A stretch of 64,000 nucleotides of DNA from Gemmatimonadales bacterium (GCA_025934955.1 JAICWE010000005.1:11558-75557), one strand, 5' to 3'. Numbered from the stretch's first letter, positions 2,888 through 27,324 are shown. Numbers and translations: made by a program. The notes: a model not told the origin generated them from the letters alone.

Positions 2888-4183
2888 TCAGCGCGCCGGC
2901 GAGGCACCGCAGGCGGCCGCGCGCTCGAGCAGCAGCGTCCGCTCGCGGGCATTCCGGGCGAGTGACGCGGCGCGCTCCAGTTCGGCGCGGGCTTCGGCGC
3001 GGCGGCCGAGCTTCATGAGAAAGTCGGCCCGAACCGCCGGCAGCAGATGGTACTTCGTGAGCGACGGATCCGAGATCAACCGATCGGCGAGCTCGAGGCC
3101 CGCGGCCGGCCCGTGCGCCATTCCTTCCGCCACCGCGCGGTTCAGCTCCACCACCGGCGACGGCGTGGCCAGCGCGAGTGCGGCATAGAGCGACGCGATG
3201 CGCGCCCAGTCGGTTTCCGCCGCGGTGCGGGCGCGGGCGTGACAGGCGGCGATCGCCGCCTGGAGCGGGTAGCGTCCGTTCCCGCCGCCCAGCTGCTCGG
3301 CTCTCGCGAGCGCCACGAGCCCGCGGCGAATGAGGAGCTGATCCCAGCGCCCGCGGTCCTGATCCAGGAGCAGCACCGGCTCGCCCGACGGCCCGACCCG
3401 CGCGCGGAGCCGCGATGCCTGGATCTCCATCAGCGCGACGAGCCCGTGCACCTCCGCCTCCGCCGGCGCGAGTGAGGCCAGCACCCGGCCGAGTCGGAGC
3501 GCGTCCTCGCACAGCGCGGGGCGAACCCAGTCCTCGCCGGCGGTGGCCGAGTAGCCCTCGTTGAAGATCAGATAGATGACCTCGAGCACCGACGAGAGGC
3601 GCTCGCCAAGCTCGGCCGCGCGCGGCGCCTCGAAGCCGACCCTCGCCTCCGCCAGCGTCCGCTTTGCCCGCACGATCCGCTGCGCGATCGTCGGCTCGGG
3701 GACGAGGAAGGCGCGCGCGATCTCCGCCGTGGTGAGCCCGCCGAGGAGCCGGAGCGTGAGCGCGAGGCGCGCCTCGGTGGAGAGCACCGGGTGGCAGGTG
3801 GTGAAGATGAGCCTGAGAAGGTCGTCGCCCACCGGATCGTCCAGCGCGGCGTCGAGCGCGGCGGCACCGTCCTCCTGCCGCGCGTCGAGCTCGCGGCCCA
3901 ACTCCTGGTGCTTGCGGTCGAGCCGGGTGCGACGGCGGAGCAGGTCCATCGCCCGATGCTTCGCGGTGGCCATGAGCCAGGCGCCGGGATTCTCCGGCAC
4001 GCCCGACTCCGGCCACCGCTCGAGCGCCGCGACCAAGGCGTCCTGCGCCAAGTCCTCCGCGGCGCCTACGTCGCCCACCATCCGCGCGAGGCCGGCGATG
4101 AGCCGGGCCGATTCGATGCGCCACACGGCGTCGATCGCGCGATGAGTGTCGGATGTCCGGTCGGATGCCCTCACGGCATCCAA
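2888..4183 (-). CDS. ECF-type RNA polymerase sigma factor with long TPR-like C-terminal extension (ECF42-like)
   Basis: 431 aa. Sigma2 region 'AIDAVWRIESARLIAGLARMVGDVGAAEDLAQDALVAALERW'. Sigma4 region 'LRLLGGLTTAEIARAFLVPEPTIAQRIVRAKRTL'. About 200 aa of extra C-terminal helical region. The start is TTG 4183 or GTG 4174 (unresolved). Confidence 0.85.
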   Translation of the reverse strand: MDAVRASDRTSDTHRAIDAVWRIESARLIAGLARMVGDVGAAEDLAQDALVAALERWPESGVPENPGAWLMATAKHRAMDLLRRRTRLDRKHQELGRELDARQEDGAAALDAALDDPVGDDLLRLIFTTCHPVLSTEARLALTLRLLGGLTTAEIARAFLVPEPTIAQRIVRAKRTLAEARVGFEAPRAAELGERLSSVLEVIYLIFNEGYSATAGEDWVRPALCEDALRLGRVLASLAPAEAEVHGLVALMEIQASRLRARVGPSGEPVLLLDQDRGRWDQLLIRRGLVALARAEQLGGGNGRYPLQAAIAACHARARTAAETDWARIASLYAALALATPSPVVELNRAVAEGMAHGPAAGLELADRLISDPSLTKYHLLPAVRADFLMKLGRRAEARAELERAASLARNARERTLLLERAAACGASPAR

Positions 4184-20400: not shown

Positions 20401-20567
20401 GCCTCGCCGACCGCTACCCGGGCGTGCGGGTGCTGTTCATGTCCGGCTTCACCAACGACGAAGTCGTCCGCCGCGGCCTGGTGCGCGCCGACCAGCGATT
20501 CGTCCAGAAGCCGTGGACCCCCGGCGGCCTTGCCACCGCGGTACGCACCGCCCTCGACGGTCACTGA
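17415..20567 (+). CDS. Hybrid sensor histidine kinase (CHASE3 + coiled coil + PAS repeats + HisKA/HATPase + REC)
   Basis: GTG 17415 (GTGA overlap) gives 1050 aa. CHASE3-like 'LLELEQTLSAMRDAETGQRGFLLTGDSSYLAPY'. H-box 'GGVAHDLNNMLTAIVGH'. G-box 'GTGLGLSTVYG'. REC domain 'VLIVEDDELVREI...LVVTDAVMPGMTG'. Confidence 0.85.
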   Translation: MKSYRSVRQGIGAAFAVALLLLAAVIILSYSSTARFGQVNQRALTANARLLELEQTLSAMRDAETGQRGFLLTGDSSYLAPYFAAEAEAAGHLERLRALYGRAAANAGTVDSIARLTMAKQAELDSSIRVYRMKGQTAALGFVAAGAGKAVMDTLRAVVTGAERQERVALQRDVAARRASARQSFAAVVALALSSVLLLGAALIAGLNAITERVRSERALEAERALLEQRVGDRTAELEVERTRAVDAAERAEQAALEAEESSAEAEMAADEAAQSLAARLAAEQAQSAADVRHRALVAQVQDYAIFSLDVEGHPTSWNEGVERTLGWTEAEFIGGNVDAIFTPEDVADGVPGRELAYAAAHGTANNDRWMRRKGGERFFANGTTTAVRDASGQLVGYTKVMRDRTEQKLADEALQRSEERFRSVARATREAIWDWDLASGGLEWNEGMEALFGYRLATITPAIDWWAERVHPEDRDRVVSSIEGAVHGSSKYWSEDYRFQRVDGSYAIVTDRGVIERDDDGRARRMIGTMADVSERRAAEREARLFVQVVEASTDFVGVSTMDGRAFYVNEAGRRLVGLPDMAAVQRTHVFDYFPERDRERVAERIWPIVLEAGHWDGDIRFRHFETGEEVLVHWNVFLVRDSDTGQPIAVGCVSPDLTERRRVEEQLAQAQRMEAIGRLAGGVAHDLNNMLTAIVGHAMFLEQGFEAGDPRLQDVAQINTAAERSATLTRSLLAFARRELVQPRQLDLNTLVRDMERMLRPALGEGIDFELRLDPRPQTVVADRSRIEQVILNLCLNARDAMPQGGRLTLETTPARLDEAYADRHPGTVIGAGRYVRLAVIDTGVGMTADTQARIFEPFFTTKGVGEGTGLGLSTVYGSVKQAEGFVWVYSEPGHGTAFHVYLPQAAAPASATATPPRPTPVPRGAAETVLIVEDDELVREIACRALQESGYNCLSARDGREALALAASHAGRLDLVVTDAVMPGMTGGELATRLADRYPGVRVLFMSGFTNDEVVRRGLVRADQRFVQKPWTPGGLATAVRTALDGH

Positions 20568-20620
20568 CGCCCGAGCCGCGGCGCCGCGTCCCGGCGTATC
20601 TTTCGCCGATCCGACTCTTC

Positions 20621-20665
20621 GCCGGACGCTCGCGTCCGGCCTCCCTGCACGTGGGCGCACCCACG
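20621..20665 (+). terminator. Two tandem GC hairpins after the hybrid kinase gene
   Basis: GCCGGACGC-tc-GCGTCCGGC (20621-20640) and CGTGGG-cgca-CCCACG (20650-20665). No U-tract. Confidence 0.3.
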
Positions 20666-20679
20666 CGAGCGACGGCATC

Positions 20680-23283
20680 GTGACTTCCGGCACACCCACC
20701 AGCTCCCGGTCCCGTGCGGGCGGCGAGTCGTCGCCGCTGATGGCGCAGTGGGCCGAGATCAAGGCGCGCCATCCGCACGCGATCCTCTGGTATCGCTGCG
20801 GCGACTTCTACGAGATGTTCTACGGCGACGCCGAGCTCGGCGCGCGGGTGCTCGACATCACGCTCACCTCGCGCGGCGACGGCGTGCCGCTCGCCGGCGT
20901 GCCGGTGCGTGCCGCCGCGGATTACCTCCGGCAGCTCGTCGCCGCCGGCCACCGCGTCGCCATCTGCGAGCAGGTCGAAGATCCGAAGCTGGCGCGCGGC
21001 CTTGTGCGCCGCGAAGTGGTGGAGACCGTGACACCCGGCGCCCAGCTCGAGGATGGATGGCTCGCCGGCGCCGCCAACAACTGGCTGGTCGCCAGCAGCG
21101 GCGCGGGGCTCGCCGCGATCGATTTCTCCACCGGCGAATTCGTGCTGGAGACGCTCGCGCCCGGCGGGCTCGCCGAGGCGCTCGCACGACTCGCCCCGCG
21201 CGAAGTCGTCGTCACGGCCGATAGCGAGCTCACGCTGGACGACGGCGTGCTCCGCACCGAGCGTGAGCGCTGGGAGTTCGATCCCGAGCTCGCGCGCGAA
21301 GAGCTGGCGCGCCGCTTCGCGCTGGCGTCGCTCGACGGGCTCGGACTGGGCCCGGAGGACGGCGCCGCCGTCGGTGCCGCCGGCGCGCTGCTCCGCTACC
21401 TCGGCGAGCTTCAGCCCGGCGGCCTGCCCCACCTCACGCGCCCCGAAATTCGCCGCGGCAGCCGGTATCTCTGGCTCGACGAGATGACCCGCCGCAACCT
21501 CGAGCTGGTCGAGCCGCTCCGCGCCGGCGCGCGCGGCTGCACGCTGCTCGAGACGATCGACCGCACCGTGACGCCGATGGGCGCGCGGCTGCTCCGGCAG
21601 TGGACGCTGTCGCCGCTTCGCGATTGCGCCACGATCGAGCGGCGGCTCGACGCGGTGGAGACGCTGGTGCGGGACGGCACCGGCCGCGCCCGGCTGCGCG
21701 AGACGCTCGACGGGGTGCGCGACCTCGAGCGTCTCGCCGGCCGCGCCGCCGCCGGCCGCGCCACTCCGCGGGAGCTCGGCGTGATCCGCGACTCGCTGGG
21801 CCGACTGCCGGATGTCGTCACCGCGCTGCGCGCCATCGCCCCGGCCGCGGCCATCGGCACGGACGGCTGGGCCGAGCTGCCGCGCGCGGTCGCGACGCTC
21901 GATCCCCTCCCCGATCTGCGCGCCGAGCTCGCCGCCGCGCTGGTCGAGCGCCCGCCCGCGCTCCTCGCCGACGGCGGCGTCATCCGCCCCGGCTATGACG
22001 CGGAGCTCGACGAGCTCCGCTCGCTGCGCGACGGCGGCCGCCAGTACATCGCCGACCTGCAGCAGCGGGAGCGCGAGCGCACCGGGATCCCGTCGCTCAA
22101 GGTCGGCTACAACAAGGTGTTCGGATATTTCCTGGAGATCACCCACGCCCACAGCGCGCGGGTGCCCGCCGAGTACGAGCGGCGCCAGACGCTGGCGAAC
22201 GCCGAGCGCTACGTCACCCCCGAGCTCAAGGACTACGAGGCGAAAGTGCTTGGCGCCGAGGAGCGGATGGCGACGCGCGAAGCGGAGCTGTTCGGTGCGC
22301 TCCGCGGCGCGGTCGCGGCGGCGATCGTGCGGATCCAGCGCAGCAGCGGCGTGCTGGCGCGGCTCGACGGGTGGAGCGCGCTCGCCGAGATCGCGGTGAC
22401 CGGACGCTACGTGCGGCCCGCGATCACCGACGATTTCGAGCTGGAGCTGGTGCAGTGCCGCCATCCGGTGATCGAGCGGCTGATGCCGCGCGAGTCGTTC
22501 ATTCCCAACGACGTGCGCTTCGAGGAGTCGGCGCGGGTGCTGCTCGTCACCGGGCCCAATATGGCCGGCAAGAGCACCATCCTCCGGCAGATCGGCCTCT
22601 GCGTGGTGCTGGCGCAGCTCGGGAGCTTCGTGCCCGCCGAGCGCGCCACGATCGGCGTGGCCGACCGGCTCTTCACCCGTGTCGGCGCCAGCGACAACCT
22701 GGCCCGCGGCCAGAGCACGTTCATGGTGGAGATGAGCGAGACCAGCGCGATCCTGCACAACGCGACAGCGCGGAGTCTGGTGCTGCTGGACGAGATCGGC
22801 CGCGGCACCTCGACGTACGACGGCGTGGCGATCGCGTGGGCGGTGACCGAGCACCTGCACGACCGGGTCGGCTGCAAGACGATGTTCGCGACCCACTACC
22901 ACGAGCTGATGCAGCTCCCCGAGGAGCTCCAGCACGCGAGGAACCTCAACGTCGCCGTGCGCGAGACCGGCGATACCGTGGTCTTCCTCCACCGTTTGGA
23001 GCCGGGCGGCACCGATCGCTCCTACGGCATCCACGTCGCGCAGCTCGCCGGGCTGCCCGATCGCGTCGTCCGCCGCGCGAGGGAGGTGCTCCGCACGCTG
23101 GAAGGCGAGCACCGGGTCGTGCCCGGCACCCCGGTCCCCGCGCCCGATCCCGGCCAGCTCCCGCTGTTCGACGCGCCGCCGCACCCGGTCGTGTCCGAGC
23201 TCGAAGCCCTCGAGATCGACACGCTGACGCCGCTCGAAGCCCTGAATCGCCTTGCCGAATTCAAGCGCCGGCTGAGCGGCTGA
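20680..23283 (+). CDS. mutS: DNA mismatch repair protein MutS
   Basis: 'PLMAQWAEIKARHPHAILWYRCGDFYEMFYGDA'. Walker A 'GPNMAGKST'. 'STFMVEM'. I chose the in-frame GTG 20680; the track start at 20530 would overlap the upstream gene. Confidence 0.9.
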   Translation: MTSGTPTSSRSRAGGESSPLMAQWAEIKARHPHAILWYRCGDFYEMFYGDAELGARVLDITLTSRGDGVPLAGVPVRAAADYLRQLVAAGHRVAICEQVEDPKLARGLVRREVVETVTPGAQLEDGWLAGAANNWLVASSGAGLAAIDFSTGEFVLETLAPGGLAEALARLAPREVVVTADSELTLDDGVLRTERERWEFDPELAREELARRFALASLDGLGLGPEDGAAVGAAGALLRYLGELQPGGLPHLTRPEIRRGSRYLWLDEMTRRNLELVEPLRAGARGCTLLETIDRTVTPMGARLLRQWTLSPLRDCATIERRLDAVETLVRDGTGRARLRETLDGVRDLERLAGRAAAGRATPRELGVIRDSLGRLPDVVTALRAIAPAAAIGTDGWAELPRAVATLDPLPDLRAELAAALVERPPALLADGGVIRPGYDAELDELRSLRDGGRQYIADLQQRERERTGIPSLKVGYNKVFGYFLEITHAHSARVPAEYERRQTLANAERYVTPELKDYEAKVLGAEERMATREAELFGALRGAVAAAIVRIQRSSGVLARLDGWSALAEIAVTGRYVRPAITDDFELELVQCRHPVIERLMPRESFIPNDVRFEESARVLLVTGPNMAGKSTILRQIGLCVVLAQLGSFVPAERATIGVADRLFTRVGASDNLARGQSTFMVEMSETSAILHNATARSLVLLDEIGRGTSTYDGVAIAWAVTEHLHDRVGCKTMFATHYHELMQLPEELQHARNLNVAVRETGDTVVFLHRLEPGGTDRSYGIHVAQLAGLPDRVVRRAREVLRTLEGEHRVVPGTPVPAPDPGQLPLFDAPPHPVVSELEALEIDTLTPLEALNRLAEFKRRLSG

Positions 23284-23306
23284 ACCCGCCTTCGTTCGCT
23301 GAGCCC

Positions 23307-24887
23307 ATGACCGAGCGTCTCTACTATCGCGATGCCTGCCTCGCCGCGTTCGAAGCGCGGGTGGTGGAGCGCGCCGACGACGGGCGACGGATCTATCTGG
23401 ATCGGACCGCCTTCTACCCCACCAGCGGCGGCCAGCCGCACGATCTCGGCGAGATCTGCGGCGTCGCGATCCAGGATGTGGTAGACGAGGGCGAGCGCAT
23501 TGCACACCTGCTCGCGCGGCCGCTGCCCGCGGGGAGCGACATGGTGAGCGCCGTGATCGACTGGCCCCGTCGCCGCGATCTGATGCAGCAACACACCGCG
23601 CAGCACCTGCTCTCCGCCCTCTTCGAGGATCGCTTCGGCTACGCGACGGTGAGCGTGCACTTCGGCGCCGAGAGCTCGACGCTCGATCTCGGCACCGGCG
23701 GCATGACGCCGGAGCAGCTGCGCGAGGCGGAAGCACGCGCCAACACGCTGATCCGCGAGCACCGGCCGGTGACCGTCTCGTTCGAGGACGCCGCGATGGC
23801 AATCGGACTTCGGAAAGCGTCCGCGCGCGACGGCACGCTCCGCATCGTTTCCATCGACGGCGTGGACCGGAGCGCCTGCGGCGGGACCCACGTCTCCAAC
23901 ACCGCCGAGATCGCGCCGCTCCTCGTGCTGCGGACCGAGCGCGTGCGTCAGGCGACGCGGGTCGAGTTCCTCGCCGGCCACCGCGCGCTCCGCCGCGCCC
24001 GCGCCGACCACGAGGCGCTCGGCCGCATCGCCCGCGCGCTCACCGTGGCGCCGGATGAAGCGCCCGCTGCCGTGGCGGCGCTCGCAGAGCAGTTGAAGGA
24101 AGCGCAGTCCGCGCGGAAGCGGCTCGATGAGGAGGCGCTGCGCCAGCGCGCCGAGTCCCTCGCCGCGAACGCCGCCGCCGATCCGGACGGCGTCCGCCGG
24201 ATCATGGAGCCCGCGGCGACGTCGCCCGACGCGCTGCGTGCGCTGGCGCAGGCGTGCGCCGCGCTGCCGCGCTGCGTGTTCGTCGGCGCCGCGGCCGCGC
24301 CGCCGCTCGTCGTCGTCTCGGCGTCCGAGGATTCCGGCGTGGACGCGGGCCGCGCCATCAAGACGCTCCTCGGCGAAGTGGCCGGCCGCGGCGGCGGGTC
24401 GCCCCGGATGGCGCAGGCGAGTCTCACCGACCCCGCCGCGCGGGAGACTGCGATCGCGCGGCTGGCCCGACTGGTTGCTCCCGCGCTGCTGCTGCTCGCG
24501 CTCGCGGCGCCGTCGGCAGGCTGCCGCCGCGGGCGCGACGACACGACGGTCCGGCTCCCGAGCAACGCGCCGCCGCCGCGCTCCAGCGCGGAGAGCCCAC
24601 CGGTGCCGCTCAACCCGAACTCGCCGGTGGAATATCCCGCCGCGCTCGAGGCGCAGGGCATCGAGGGCACCGTGCTCCTTCGCCTCTACATCGACACCAG
24701 CGGCGCGGTGCGCCCCGATTCGATTCACGTCGCCGAGTCGAGCGGCTATCCCGCCCTCGATTCCGCGGCGATCGCCGGCGCGCGCCGGCTCCGCTACGCT
24801 CCGGCGCTCAAGGGCGGACAGCCCGTCGCGTCACTCTTCATGCAGCCCATTCAGTTCCGGCGCAGCCACGGCGCCGGGAGGACCTGA
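23307..24887 (+). CDS. AlaX-L-type alanyl-tRNA editing protein continuing in frame into TM/lipobox + Pro-rich linker + TonB C-terminal domain
   Basis: ATG 23307 gives 526 aa. Editing motifs 'HTAQHLLSA' and 'CGGTHV'. DHHA1-like 'GRGGGSPRMAQA'. Then 'LVAPALLLLALAAPSAGC', a Pro-rich stretch, and 'VEYPAALEAQGIEGTVLLRLYIDTSGAV...SGYPALDSAAIAGARRLRYAPA' (TonB_C-like). No stop codon lies between the parts. Confidence 0.7.
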   Translation: MTERLYYRDACLAAFEARVVERADDGRRIYLDRTAFYPTSGGQPHDLGEICGVAIQDVVDEGERIAHLLARPLPAGSDMVSAVIDWPRRRDLMQQHTAQHLLSALFEDRFGYATVSVHFGAESSTLDLGTGGMTPEQLREAEARANTLIREHRPVTVSFEDAAMAIGLRKASARDGTLRIVSIDGVDRSACGGTHVSNTAEIAPLLVLRTERVRQATRVEFLAGHRALRRARADHEALGRIARALTVAPDEAPAAVAALAEQLKEAQSARKRLDEEALRQRAESLAANAAADPDGVRRIMEPAATSPDALRALAQACAALPRCVFVGAAAAPPLVVVSASEDSGVDAGRAIKTLLGEVAGRGGGSPRMAQASLTDPAARETAIARLARLVAPALLLLALAAPSAGCRRGRDDTTVRLPSNAPPPRSSAESPPVPLNPNSPVEYPAALEAQGIEGTVLLRLYIDTSGAVRPDSIHVAESSGYPALDSAAIAGARRLRYAPALKGGQPVASLFMQPIQFRRSHGAGRT

Positions 24888-26299
24888 TGACCGCCAGCTC
24901 ACCGCGCGGCGCGACACCGCCGCACCTCGCGCCCTATGACTCCGTGCTCGACACCGTCGGCTGGACGCCGCTCATCCGTCTGGGCCGGGTCGGGGCCGGA
25001 CTGCGGACGCCGATCTACGGGAAGGCGGAGTACGCCAACCCCGGCGGCTCCGTGAAGGACCGCATCGGGCTCGCCATCATCGAGGACGCCGAGCGACGCG
25101 GCGAGCTCAAACCCGGCGGCACCGTCGTCGAGGGCACCAGCGGCAACACCGGCGTCGGCCTCGCCATGGCGGCGGCGCTCAAGGGCTACCGCTGCATCTT
25201 CACCATGCCTGACAAGATGTCGCAGGAAAAGGTGCGGCTGCTCAGGGCCTACGGCGCCGACGTCGTCATCACGCCCACCGCCGTACCGGCGGATCACCCG
25301 GACAACTACGTGATGAAGGCCAAGCAGATCGTGAAGGACACGCCGGGCGCGATCCTCGCCAACCAGTTCTACAATCAGGTGAACCCCGAGGCACACTACC
25401 GCACCACTGGTCCCGAGATCTGGGAGCAAACCGGCGGCCGGGTCAGCCATTTCGTGGCGGGCGCCGGCACCGGCGGCACGGTGAGCGGCGCGGGCAAGTA
25501 TCTCAAGGAACGGAACCCCGACATCCGCGTCATCGCCGGCGACCCGGTCGGCTCGCTCTACACCGGCTACGCCCGGAGCGGCACCTTGGGCAGCGGTCAC
25601 CCCTACAAGGTGGAAGGCATCGGCGGCGACAAGGCGCCGACCACGGTCTGGTGGGACCAGATCGATGAATGGCGCCAGGTGAGCGACCGGGTCTCGATGA
25701 TGACGGCCCGCCGGATCGCCCGGGAAGAGGGCATCCTGGTCGGCGGCTCTGCCGGGCTCAATGTGGCGGTGGCCCTGGAGCTGGCGCGCGAGCTCGACAG
25801 CCCCGACGCCTGCGTCGTCACCATTCTCTGCGACACCGGCGAGCGCTACCTCTCCAAGGTCTTCAGCGACGAGTGGATGCAGGAGAACCAGCTGCTCGAC
25901 CGGCCCCAGGCCACGGTGGAGCAGATCCTGGCACGGCGTTCGCCGGAGGCGCCGGCGCTGGTGAGCGTCGCCCCGGCCGCCGCGGTGCGGCAGGCGCTGA
26001 ACCTGATGAGCACCTGGGGCGTGAGCCAGATCCCCGTGGTAGACGAAGGCAAGTCGGTCGGCGGACTCGCCGAGGGCACCTTGATGACGCGGGCGCTCGC
26101 ACAGCCCGCCCTGCTGGACCGCCCGGTGCGCGAGGTGATGGACCCGCCGTTCCCGGTCGTGGACGCCGGCTTCGCCACCGACCGGCTCGGCGCCATGCTG
26201 ACGCGGGAAAGCCCCGCCGCACTGGTCCAGAAGGAGGGCGAACTGATCGGCATCGTGAGCCGCTACGACCTGCTCCAGCAGATGATCGGAAGCCGCTGA
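24887..26299 (+). CDS. Cystathionine beta-synthase (PLP cysteine-synthase fold + CBS domain pair)
   Basis: TGATG junction. 470 aa. 'NPGGSVKDRIGLAIIEDAERRG...EGTSGNTGVGLAMAAALKGY'. C-terminal tandem CBS-like domains. Confidence 0.85.
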   Translation: MTASSPRGATPPHLAPYDSVLDTVGWTPLIRLGRVGAGLRTPIYGKAEYANPGGSVKDRIGLAIIEDAERRGELKPGGTVVEGTSGNTGVGLAMAAALKGYRCIFTMPDKMSQEKVRLLRAYGADVVITPTAVPADHPDNYVMKAKQIVKDTPGAILANQFYNQVNPEAHYRTTGPEIWEQTGGRVSHFVAGAGTGGTVSGAGKYLKERNPDIRVIAGDPVGSLYTGYARSGTLGSGHPYKVEGIGGDKAPTTVWWDQIDEWRQVSDRVSMMTARRIAREEGILVGGSAGLNVAVALELARELDSPDACVVTILCDTGERYLSKVFSDEWMQENQLLDRPQATVEQILARRSPEAPALVSVAPAAAVRQALNLMSTWGVSQIPVVDEGKSVGGLAEGTLMTRALAQPALLDRPVREVMDPPFPVVDAGFATDRLGAMLTRESPAALVQKEGELIGIVSRYDLLQQMIGSR

Positions 26300-27324
26300 T
26301 GCGCGTCACTGTACTTACCGGCGGCACGTCGGCCGAGCGGGACGTGGCGATAGCCTCGGCGGTGCAGGTCATCGCGGCACTCCGGACGCGCAGGCACCAG
26401 GTCTCGGTGGTGGACACCGCCCGCGGGTACATCGCGGAACGGGACGAAGCCGTGCTGCTCTCCGGTGCGGTCGGCGCGGAGCCGCCGTCGCTCCCCGAGC
26501 TGCAGGCGCTCGAGCGGGGGCTGCTCCTTTCCGGCCTCGCCAATCTGGCCGCCGTGAAGGACGCCGAGGTCCTCTTCCTGGCGCTCCACGGCGGCCGGGG
26601 TGAAGACGGCACCATCCAGACCTTGCTGGAAATGATCGGCGTCCCCTATACCGGAAGTGGCCGCCTGGGGAGTGCGCTCGCGATGGACAAGGACGTCGCC
26701 AAGCGGCTCTTTCGTCAGACCGGGGTACCGACGCCCGATTGGGTGATGGCGCCCGCAGCGGCGGCCCGGATCGGGCAACAGCTTGGATGGCCGGCGGTGG
26801 TGAAGCCGTCGAAACAGGGCTCCACCGTCGGGCTGACGGTGGTGAAGCGACCCGAGGACTACGAGGCAGCGGTGACCTTGGCGCGACAGTACGACGATGA
26901 GGTGATGGTCGAGGCCTTCGTGCCGGGGCGCGAGCTGACGGTCGGGGTGCTCGACGGCCGCGCGCTGGCCGTGGGCGAGATCATCCCGCGGCACGAGGTC
27001 TTCGACTACGAGTGCAAGTACACGCCCGGCATGTCCCAGGAGATCTTCCCCGCCGACATCACCCCGGCCGTCGCGGCCGAATGCGGCCGCCTCTCGCTCC
27101 TCGCGCACCACGCGCTGAAGCTGGGTGGCTACTCGCGGGTGGACTTTCGCTTGACACCGGCGGGCGATCTGTCCTGTTTAGAAGTGAACACGCTGCCTGG
27201 CATGACGGCCACGAGCCTTCTGCCCCAGTCGGCGGCCGCGGTCGGCATCGATTTCGCCGAGTTGTGCGAGCGAATCTGCCGCTCCGCGGGCACGGTGCAC
27301 GCTCGCGTGAAGGAACCTGCCTGA
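26299..27324 (+). CDS. ddl: D-alanine--D-alanine ligase
   Basis: TGATG junction. 341 aa. 'VLTGGTSAERDVAIASA...FLALHGGRGEDGTIQTLLEMIGVPYTGSG...VNTLPGMT'. Confidence 0.9.
   Translation: MRVTVLTGGTSAERDVAIASAVQVIAALRTRRHQVSVVDTARGYIAERDEAVLLSGAVGAEPPSLPELQALERGLLLSGLANLAAVKDAEVLFLALHGGRGEDGTIQTLLEMIGVPYTGSGRLGSALAMDKDVAKRLFRQTGVPTPDWVMAPAAAARIGQQLGWPAVVKPSKQGSTVGLTVVKRPEDYEAAVTLARQYDDEVMVEAFVPGRELTVGVLDGRALAVGEIIPRHEVFDYECKYTPGMSQEIFPADITPAVAAECGRLSLLAHHALKLGGYSRVDFRLTPAGDLSCLEVNTLPGMTATSLLPQSAAAVGIDFAELCERICRSAGTVHARVKEPA

Follow-up and report, generated by a model that had tools for sequence, protein, structure and literature searches.

Within a 64,000-nucleotide stretch of a Gemmatimonadales draft genome (GCA_025934955.1, JAICWE010000005.1:11558-75557; hereafter the window), a single open reading frame (ORF) of 526 codons runs from an AlaX-L tRNA-editing protein directly into a small lipoprotein with a TonB_C domain, leaving the lipoprotein signal peptide in the interior of the chain. 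We consider this fusion almost certainly real and propose, at a probability of roughly 55%, that its product is a precursor whose C-terminal part would be exported, lipidated by Lgt and cut by LspA ahead of Cys406. An earlier model-generated annotation of the window (the original prediction) had pointed to this ORF as an AlaX-type protein reading without a stop into a membrane anchor and a TonB C-terminal domain, and had offered sequencing error, a lost stop or a nested gene as alternatives.

Occurrence of the fused frame

The read-through from AlaX into TonB_C is borne out both by translation from ATG 23307 and by Pfam and NCBIfam profile matches (Table 1). The domain scan that the original prediction had called for matched all three expected Pfam families over their cut-offs, namely tRNA_SAD (residues 178-215), DHHA1 (335-390) and TonB_C (441-518). 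Residues 1-388 match the NCBIfam AlaX-M model and the C-terminal half of alanyl-tRNA synthetase (AlaRS), and residues 442-518 match tonB_Cterm. The motifs it had quoted lie at residues 96-100 (HTAQH), 191-195 (CGGTH) and 362-365 (GGGS), and the position it had given for the Cys codon, 24522-24524, is correct. GC content at third codon positions (GC3) in the fused frame is 85-97% across the junction, like that of mutS and of the downstream gene, and this steadiness indicates that the frame is continuous. From the Gly-rich motif to Cys406, no stop occurs in any frame.

A search of 5.8 billion protein clusters recovered the same architecture in P0002 (JGI, 90% identity, 526 amino acids (aa)) and P0003 (JGI, 80% identity), the latter listed as 541 aa owing to an upstream start call that adds 16 residues. 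The window's own cluster holds two further distinct sequences, P0121 and P0122 (99-100% identity), from Logan and NCBI assemblies. The read-through frame is therefore open in five of five distinct sequences (NCBI, Logan and JGI; 80-100% identity), and since these come from independent assemblies, the sequencing-error or frameshift alternative does not survive. The idea of a lost stop is essentially correct as history, since relatives carry two separate genes whereas the fusion lacks the stop, the spacer and the start of the lipoprotein gene, and fails as a sequencing error.

P0003 differs from the window protein by a one-codon deletion just past the Cys and by substitutions throughout, with identities of 78% in the editing part, 67% in the hydrophobic region (h-region) and lipobox, 85% in the linker and 91% in TonB_C. 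Its h-region retains both hydrophobicity and the Cys. Both halves are under purifying selection, and the export signal has been retained.

The fusion is rare. All other matches listed in the 5.8-billion-cluster search were AlaX-L proteins that lack TonB_C and measure about 385-406 aa, and residues 400-526, searched against proteins of 289-921 aa, returned only the three fused clusters, P0243 (discussed below) and P0244, a distant BlaR1-type protein. An exhaustive phmmer scan of 1.84 billion representatives gave 149 other AlaX relatives among the best 150 matches, none of them over 430 aa. Among 120 genomes of the same family (f1), a match over residues 1-526 was found only in the window's own genome (G000), which a genus-level genome search returned as the sole species of its genus. 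Apart from the fused gene, neither an AlaX-L nor an orthologue of the lipoprotein was found in this assembly (110 contigs, 88% complete). The suggestion that the combination is undescribed is thus upheld, with no other fused form in the database-wide searches or the 120 family genomes; likewise, a membrane-bound AlaX was described in none of the titles and abstracts from a literature search on AlaX and membranes. The fusion is confined to one narrow Gemmatimonadota lineage known from metagenome assemblies only.

Composition of the two halves

Judged by sequence, residues 1-390 have the AlaX-L architecture as defined in PMC11260482, which also describes the Gly-rich motif of the C-Ala domain. 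They match, end to end, the stand-alone AlaX-L proteins of about 390 aa found in Gemmatimonadota (54-61% identity). The AlaX-M model is matched over profile positions 1-231 of 234 with 165.9 bits, below its equivalog cut-off of 300, and DHHA1 scores 30.8 bits against a cut-off of 25.9. AlaX-L trans-editing proteins are free-standing homologues of the editing and C-Ala domains of AlaRS, and their HxxxH, CxxxH and Gly-rich motifs are all intact in the fusion. AlphaFold2 modelled residues 1-390 with a confidence score (pLDDT) of about 90 or more and placed the last helix at residues 376-389, and the AlaX fold is predicted to be complete up to that helix. Unfused AlaX proteins end 23-24 residues past position 368, which corresponds to residue 390 or 391 of the fusion. 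The fusion, by contrast, has no stop after the last C-Ala helix and continues for 136 residues that comprise an export signal and a periplasmic domain, so that in place of a free-standing soluble AlaX-L of about 390-410 aa the product has 526 aa. Across family f1, AlaX-L was detected at strong E-values in only about 36 of the 120 genomes, at varying genomic places, and it behaves as an accessory gene.

The second half, on sequence grounds, is a TonB_C-domain protein and not TonB. TonB_C scores 60.8 bits with PF03544 (cut-off 24.6) and 52.6 bits with TIGR01352 (cut-off 27.1), whereas the scores with full-length TonB models fall well short of the cut-offs. In the alignment used for the whole protein (A5), only five rows cover residues 394-526 and AlphaFold2 confidence there is low; owing to this sparse coverage, we modelled the TonB_C part separately, using residues 368-526 and a second alignment (A3), and obtained a pLDDT of 92-96 for TonB_C. 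The best Foldseek match to the model was 6i97_D (E-value 3e-6, target-normalised TM-score 0.76), and 6i97_D, 1u07 and 1xx3 were each matched with probability 1.00. Canonical TonB of E. coli and P. aeruginosa has the same C-terminal domain fold (target-normalised TM-scores 0.67-0.76). Unlike canonical TonB, however, the fusion has no His in segment 389-405 and hence no ExbB/ExbD-coupling His anchor, this segment ends in a putative lipobox, and the linker of 34 residues between Cys406 and TonB_C offers no periplasm-spanning rod.

Closer relatives of this half are small stand-alone proteins, which their sources name "TonB family protein" or "energy transducer TonB". Matches under 289 aa number 1739, and those listed measure 130-177 aa, mostly 134-157. 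The 23 members that we aligned to residues 368-526 have in common a short signal peptide, a lipobox, a conserved mature N-terminus, a Pro-rich linker and TonB_C, and the lipobox Cys aligned to Cys406 is invariant in all 24 family members and in every fused form. In the DNA of relatives, the lipoprotein genes have their own ATG followed by a signal peptide of 14-24 residues. Small TonB_C lipoproteins of Gemmatimonadota are 52-66% identical to residues 389-526 of the fusion, which differs from them in that the start codon and the beginning of the signal n-region are gone and the signal peptide has become internal. The highest 19-residue Kyte-Doolittle window of the whole protein (residues 383-401; 1.96) falls within the hydrophobic segment; at a window of 15 residues, the segment ties with a DHHA1 core strand (323-337). 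Of the membrane anchor and TonB domain originally proposed, the hydrophobic segment and the TonB_C fold are thus confirmed; the segment, however, is a lipoprotein-family signal peptide with its invariant Cys rather than a TonB-type anchor.

Proposed processing of a precursor and competing explanations

With no termination before 24885 in the frame opened by ATG 23307, the 526-residue chain would be made whenever AlaX is made, and the conservation of the lipoprotein part implies that this part must still be exported. We propose that one precursor is translated from ATG 23307 with the lipoprotein signal peptide internal (residues 389-405, followed by Cys406). The folded AlaX part would remain cytoplasmic, the internal signal would take up an N-in orientation in the membrane, and the C-terminal part would be exported in a Sec-dependent manner. 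Lgt would then lipidate Cys406 and LspA would cut before it, releasing a mature lipoprotein identical in kind to that of relatives. The remnant of the signal peptide would keep AlaX(1-405) at the membrane unless an S2P-type protease cleared that remnant and set AlaX free. What points to export, lipidation and cleavage is the lipobox (SAGC, LAGC, LGAC) together with the conserved mature N-terminus, both kept in all fused forms; these are the sole basis for the three steps. The genome encodes LspA (123.8 bits), Lgt (171.3 bits) and S2P-family proteases, and clearance of signal peptides by RseP is established for E. coli (PMC8144685). The membrane-held product AlaX(1-405) would have its enzyme domain on the cytoplasmic side. 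Large N-terminal cytoplasmic domains are common in bacterial bitopic proteins, for example PknB-type kinases and ToxR-type regulators.

Taken further, this scheme describes a natural polyprotein, in which a single chain carries both a cytoplasmic enzyme and an exported lipoprotein and is split by signal peptidase II at an internal lipobox, with AlaX becoming a tail-anchored editing factor at the membrane, a picture that we offer tentatively and hold at somewhat less than even odds. The fusion is probably nearly neutral, a tolerated "accidental polyprotein", rather than a new coupling of tRNA editing with TonB.

Several observations weigh against processing of a single precursor. A literature search gave no example of Lgt or LspA processing a lipobox that lies some 400 residues into the chain, and the signal here lies about 388 residues from ATG 23307 rather than at the N-terminus. 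When compared with the pattern [LVI][ASTVI][GAS]C, the window lipobox reads SAGC, with Ser rather than Leu, Val or Ile at position -3 (P0002 reads LAGC and P0003 LGAC). The hydrophobic segment is flanked by Arg-rich stretches (three Lys plus Arg before it, four after), and the positive-inside rule therefore does not fix its orientation. Finally, position 368 is occupied by Met, Met and Val in the fused forms, whereas Met or Val occurs there in 16 of 117 unfused AlaX proteins (14%; Leu 71, Ile 28, Met 14, Val 2, Phe 1, Thr 1), a bias that would fit selection for an internal start.

Such a start, at ATG 24408, would give rise to most of the lipoprotein, with a signal peptide of 38 residues, and the AlaX read-through would then be a side product tolerated after loss of the stop. 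No in-frame ATG, GTG or TTG other than ATG 24408 occurs between the Gly-rich motif and Cys406, which leaves it as the one canonical start downstream of the AlaX core and ahead of that Cys; a one-step change of ATG to a Val codon gives GTG, itself a start codon, and in-frame internal starts do occur in bacteria (IF2, ClpB, CheA). The three fused lineages are kin, however, so that the Met, Met and Val represent one or two events. The n-region beginning at ATG 24408 would have 21 residues and a net charge of about +1, compared with 3-10 residues in stand-alone relatives. The 40 nucleotides (nt) before this ATG contain no GGAGG-like Shine-Dalgarno sequence, while the next gene start, at 24887, has GGGAGGA; this absence is weak evidence, as the AlaX start and some of the relatives' lipoprotein starts also lack one. 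A scan of 22800-25200 for promoters, limited to sigma-70 consensus sites, and for terminators found none. The full-length fusion would, moreover, still be translated if ATG 24408 were used. We regard an internal start as the main source of the lipoprotein as unlikely, though not negligibly so.

An uncleaved protein that stays bitopic and has acquired a new role, with AlaX tethered to the inner membrane by one transmembrane helix and thereby coupled to a periplasmic TonB_C domain as in the topology of the original prediction, would be in keeping with the 17-residue hydrophobic stretch (389-405) and with a preceding helix predicted to be continuous over residues 376-399, with the imperfect window lipobox (Ser at -3), and with retention of the fusion over 20% protein divergence. 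The segment is nevertheless orthologous to cleavable lipoprotein signal peptides, and every fused form retains its Cys together with small residues at -1 and -2; given this identity as a lipoprotein-family signal peptide, cleavage of a precursor is more probable than a lasting bitopic product. The fusion also occurs in only one 50%-identity cluster among the 1.84 billion representatives (best 150 listed), both partners are independent and unlinked genes in nearly all relatives, where AlaX-L itself is a minority gene, and no functional logic is apparent between hydrolysis of Ser-tRNA(Ala) and a TonB_C domain. Together these make a tethered protein improbable. That an assembly or sequencing error lost the stop or shifted the frame is suggested only by the draft state of the genome, and is very improbable: the frame is open in distinct sequences from three independent sources, the 90% and 80% forms carry many substitutions, GC3 is continuous across the junction, and no spacer or start codon is left for an error to have hidden. 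Precursor processing by Lgt and LspA therefore remains our preferred explanation.

Table 1. Positions of the fused gene, its parts and its neighbours, counted from the first nucleotide of the window.
Feature	Position	Strand	Remarks
Fused ORF	23307..24887	+	526 codons and TGA; translation has one stop only, at the end
AlaX-L part	23307..24476	+	Residues 1-390; N-terminal barrel, editing domain, helical linker, C-Ala/DHHA1-like domain
Zn-binding motif HTAQH (H96, H100)	23592..23606	+	Both His invariant in 52 aligned sequences
Zn-binding motif CGGTH (C191, H195)	23877..23891	+	No variation at C191 or H195 in the 52-sequence alignment
Gly-rich motif GGGS of the C-Ala domain	24390..24401	+	Residues 362-365; G362, G363 and G364 invariant, S365 in at least 90% (52 sequences)
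ATG of M368	24408..24410	+	Sole canonical in-frame codon at which the lipoprotein part could start internally
Approximate fusion junction	24462..24470	+	Residues 386-388; AlaX homology to about L386, lipoprotein homology from 385-395
Hydrophobic h-region ending in putative lipobox SAGC	24471..24524	+	h-region residues 389-405; Cys406 at 24522-24524
Mature N-terminus and Pro-rich linker	24525..24626	+	Residues 407-440; post-Cys pattern R/x-x-DD-x-T-x-R-L common to stand-alone lipoproteins
TonB_C domain	24627..24860	+	Residues 441-518; Pfam PF03544, E-value 1.8e-16
Stop/start overlap TGATG	24885..24889	+	Fusion stop shares 1 nt with the ATG of the next gene; GGGAGGA 5 nt upstream
mutS	20530..23283	+	Pfam MutS domains I-V; ancestral upstream neighbour of the lipoprotein gene
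PALP and CBS-domain enzyme (cystathionine beta-synthase-like)	24887..26299	+	Pfam; synteny in relatives, 72-94% identity

Gene order, origin and significance

In the window, mutS, the fusion, the PALP and CBS-domain enzyme and ddl follow one another (20530-27324). We compared this order with that at loci L013, L015-L019 and L022-L033; L027 comes from G013, which, like G083 in the family tally, is flagged as unpublished, and no claim is based on either alone. A metagenome scan supplied at least two loci with a stand-alone lipoprotein gene, L013 and L014, and no fused contig was among the matches it listed. About a dozen relatives have mutS, the lipoprotein gene and the CBS-like gene in the same order, with ddl following where the fetched stretch reaches that far, and across the family the stop of the lipoprotein gene (about 135 aa) abuts or overlaps the start of the next gene. 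In relatives that carry AlaX-L, the gene lies on another contig, apart from the mutS-lipoprotein locus. The exception is genus g24, in which a separate AlaX gene precedes the lipoprotein gene (L015, L032). In one g24 genome (G110), the order is AlaX, an M1-peptidase-like gene, the lipoprotein gene and the CBS-like gene; in another (G023), AlaX ends at its own TGA and the lipoprotein gene begins with its own ATG about 380 nt further on. Judging from gene order and sequence, the g24 arrangement is likely the precursor state of the fusion.

We envisage an ancestor in which an AlaX-L gene lay directly upstream of the small TonB_C lipoprotein gene, and in which a short deletion would have taken out the 3' end of AlaX (its final few codons and the stop), any spacer and the opening codons of the lipoprotein gene, creating an in-frame joint at about residue 386. 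An evolutionarily recent gene fusion by small deletion would be the simplest history compatible with these sequences.

The region around the lipoprotein gene shows further variation. On one metagenome contig (L014, 1392-3893, minus strand), mutS is separated from the lipoprotein gene by a gene for an HrpB-type helicase, which shows that the occupant of the position just before the lipoprotein gene varies. In G023 (L015, G023:C142, 300-660), the spacer that follows AlaX and precedes the lipoprotein gene is bounded by an inverted repeat, 'catcctgagcgtagcgaaggatct' and its complement 'agatccttcgcttcgctcaggatg', and also holds short direct repeats; it looks like a miniature inverted-repeat transposable element (MITE) or a repetitive extragenic palindromic (REP) element. 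Upstream of the stand-alone lipoprotein ATG at L015:681-701 and L016:1597-1617, TAGCTT or TAACTT is found at a distance of 6-7 nt, with no Shine-Dalgarno sequence; this hexamer may be the -10 box of a leaderless mRNA. Within the window, a 1117-aa ORF (20449-23802, minus strand) runs opposite mutS and the start of AlaX without any Pfam match, and is a chance open frame typical of a high-GC genome.

Long open frames near the lipoprotein gene in other genomes raised the possibility of widespread mutS fusions, which we rejected: most are chance ORFs in alternative frames of mutS, or a stop is present (L026). Among the relatives checked, only G015 has a true mutS read-through. There (L023, G015:C6:296600-300900, about 3062-3830), mutS lacks a stop and continues for about 90 codons through the spacer into a lipoprotein gene that has its own ATG and signal peptide; the same mutS switches frame near L023:989-1037, which suggests a frameshift or assembly error. 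P0243 (ENA, 315 aa) combines MutS_V with TonB_C, shares 61% identity with the fusion over residues 400-526, and is probably a mutS read-through into the lipoprotein gene or a gene truncated where its contig ends. Both resemble the AlaX fusion in that a stopless upstream gene runs in frame into the lipoprotein gene. However, each is a single sequence and G015 keeps the spacer and the lipoprotein ATG, whereas the AlaX fusion is seamless and present in three diverged lineages. The two cases fit a tolerance of read-through into the lipoprotein gene.

Both halves of the fused protein belong to known families; their combination of AlaX-L, internal lipoprotein signal and TonB_C is new, but it looks like the accidental outcome of gene order plus a small deletion and so reveals no new system. 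The fusion is a clean, dated natural example of the seamless joining of neighbouring genes in a high-GC genome with few stop codons. It is also an annotation trap, as the label "alanyl-tRNA synthetase" given by the sources hides a conserved envelope lipoprotein. The protein may also test whether the lipoprotein pathway is able to handle an internal signal behind a folded domain of 390 residues. More broadly, it draws notice to a large, widespread and uncharacterised family of TonB_C lipoproteins, encoded between mutS and the CBS-like gene in the family genomes examined.

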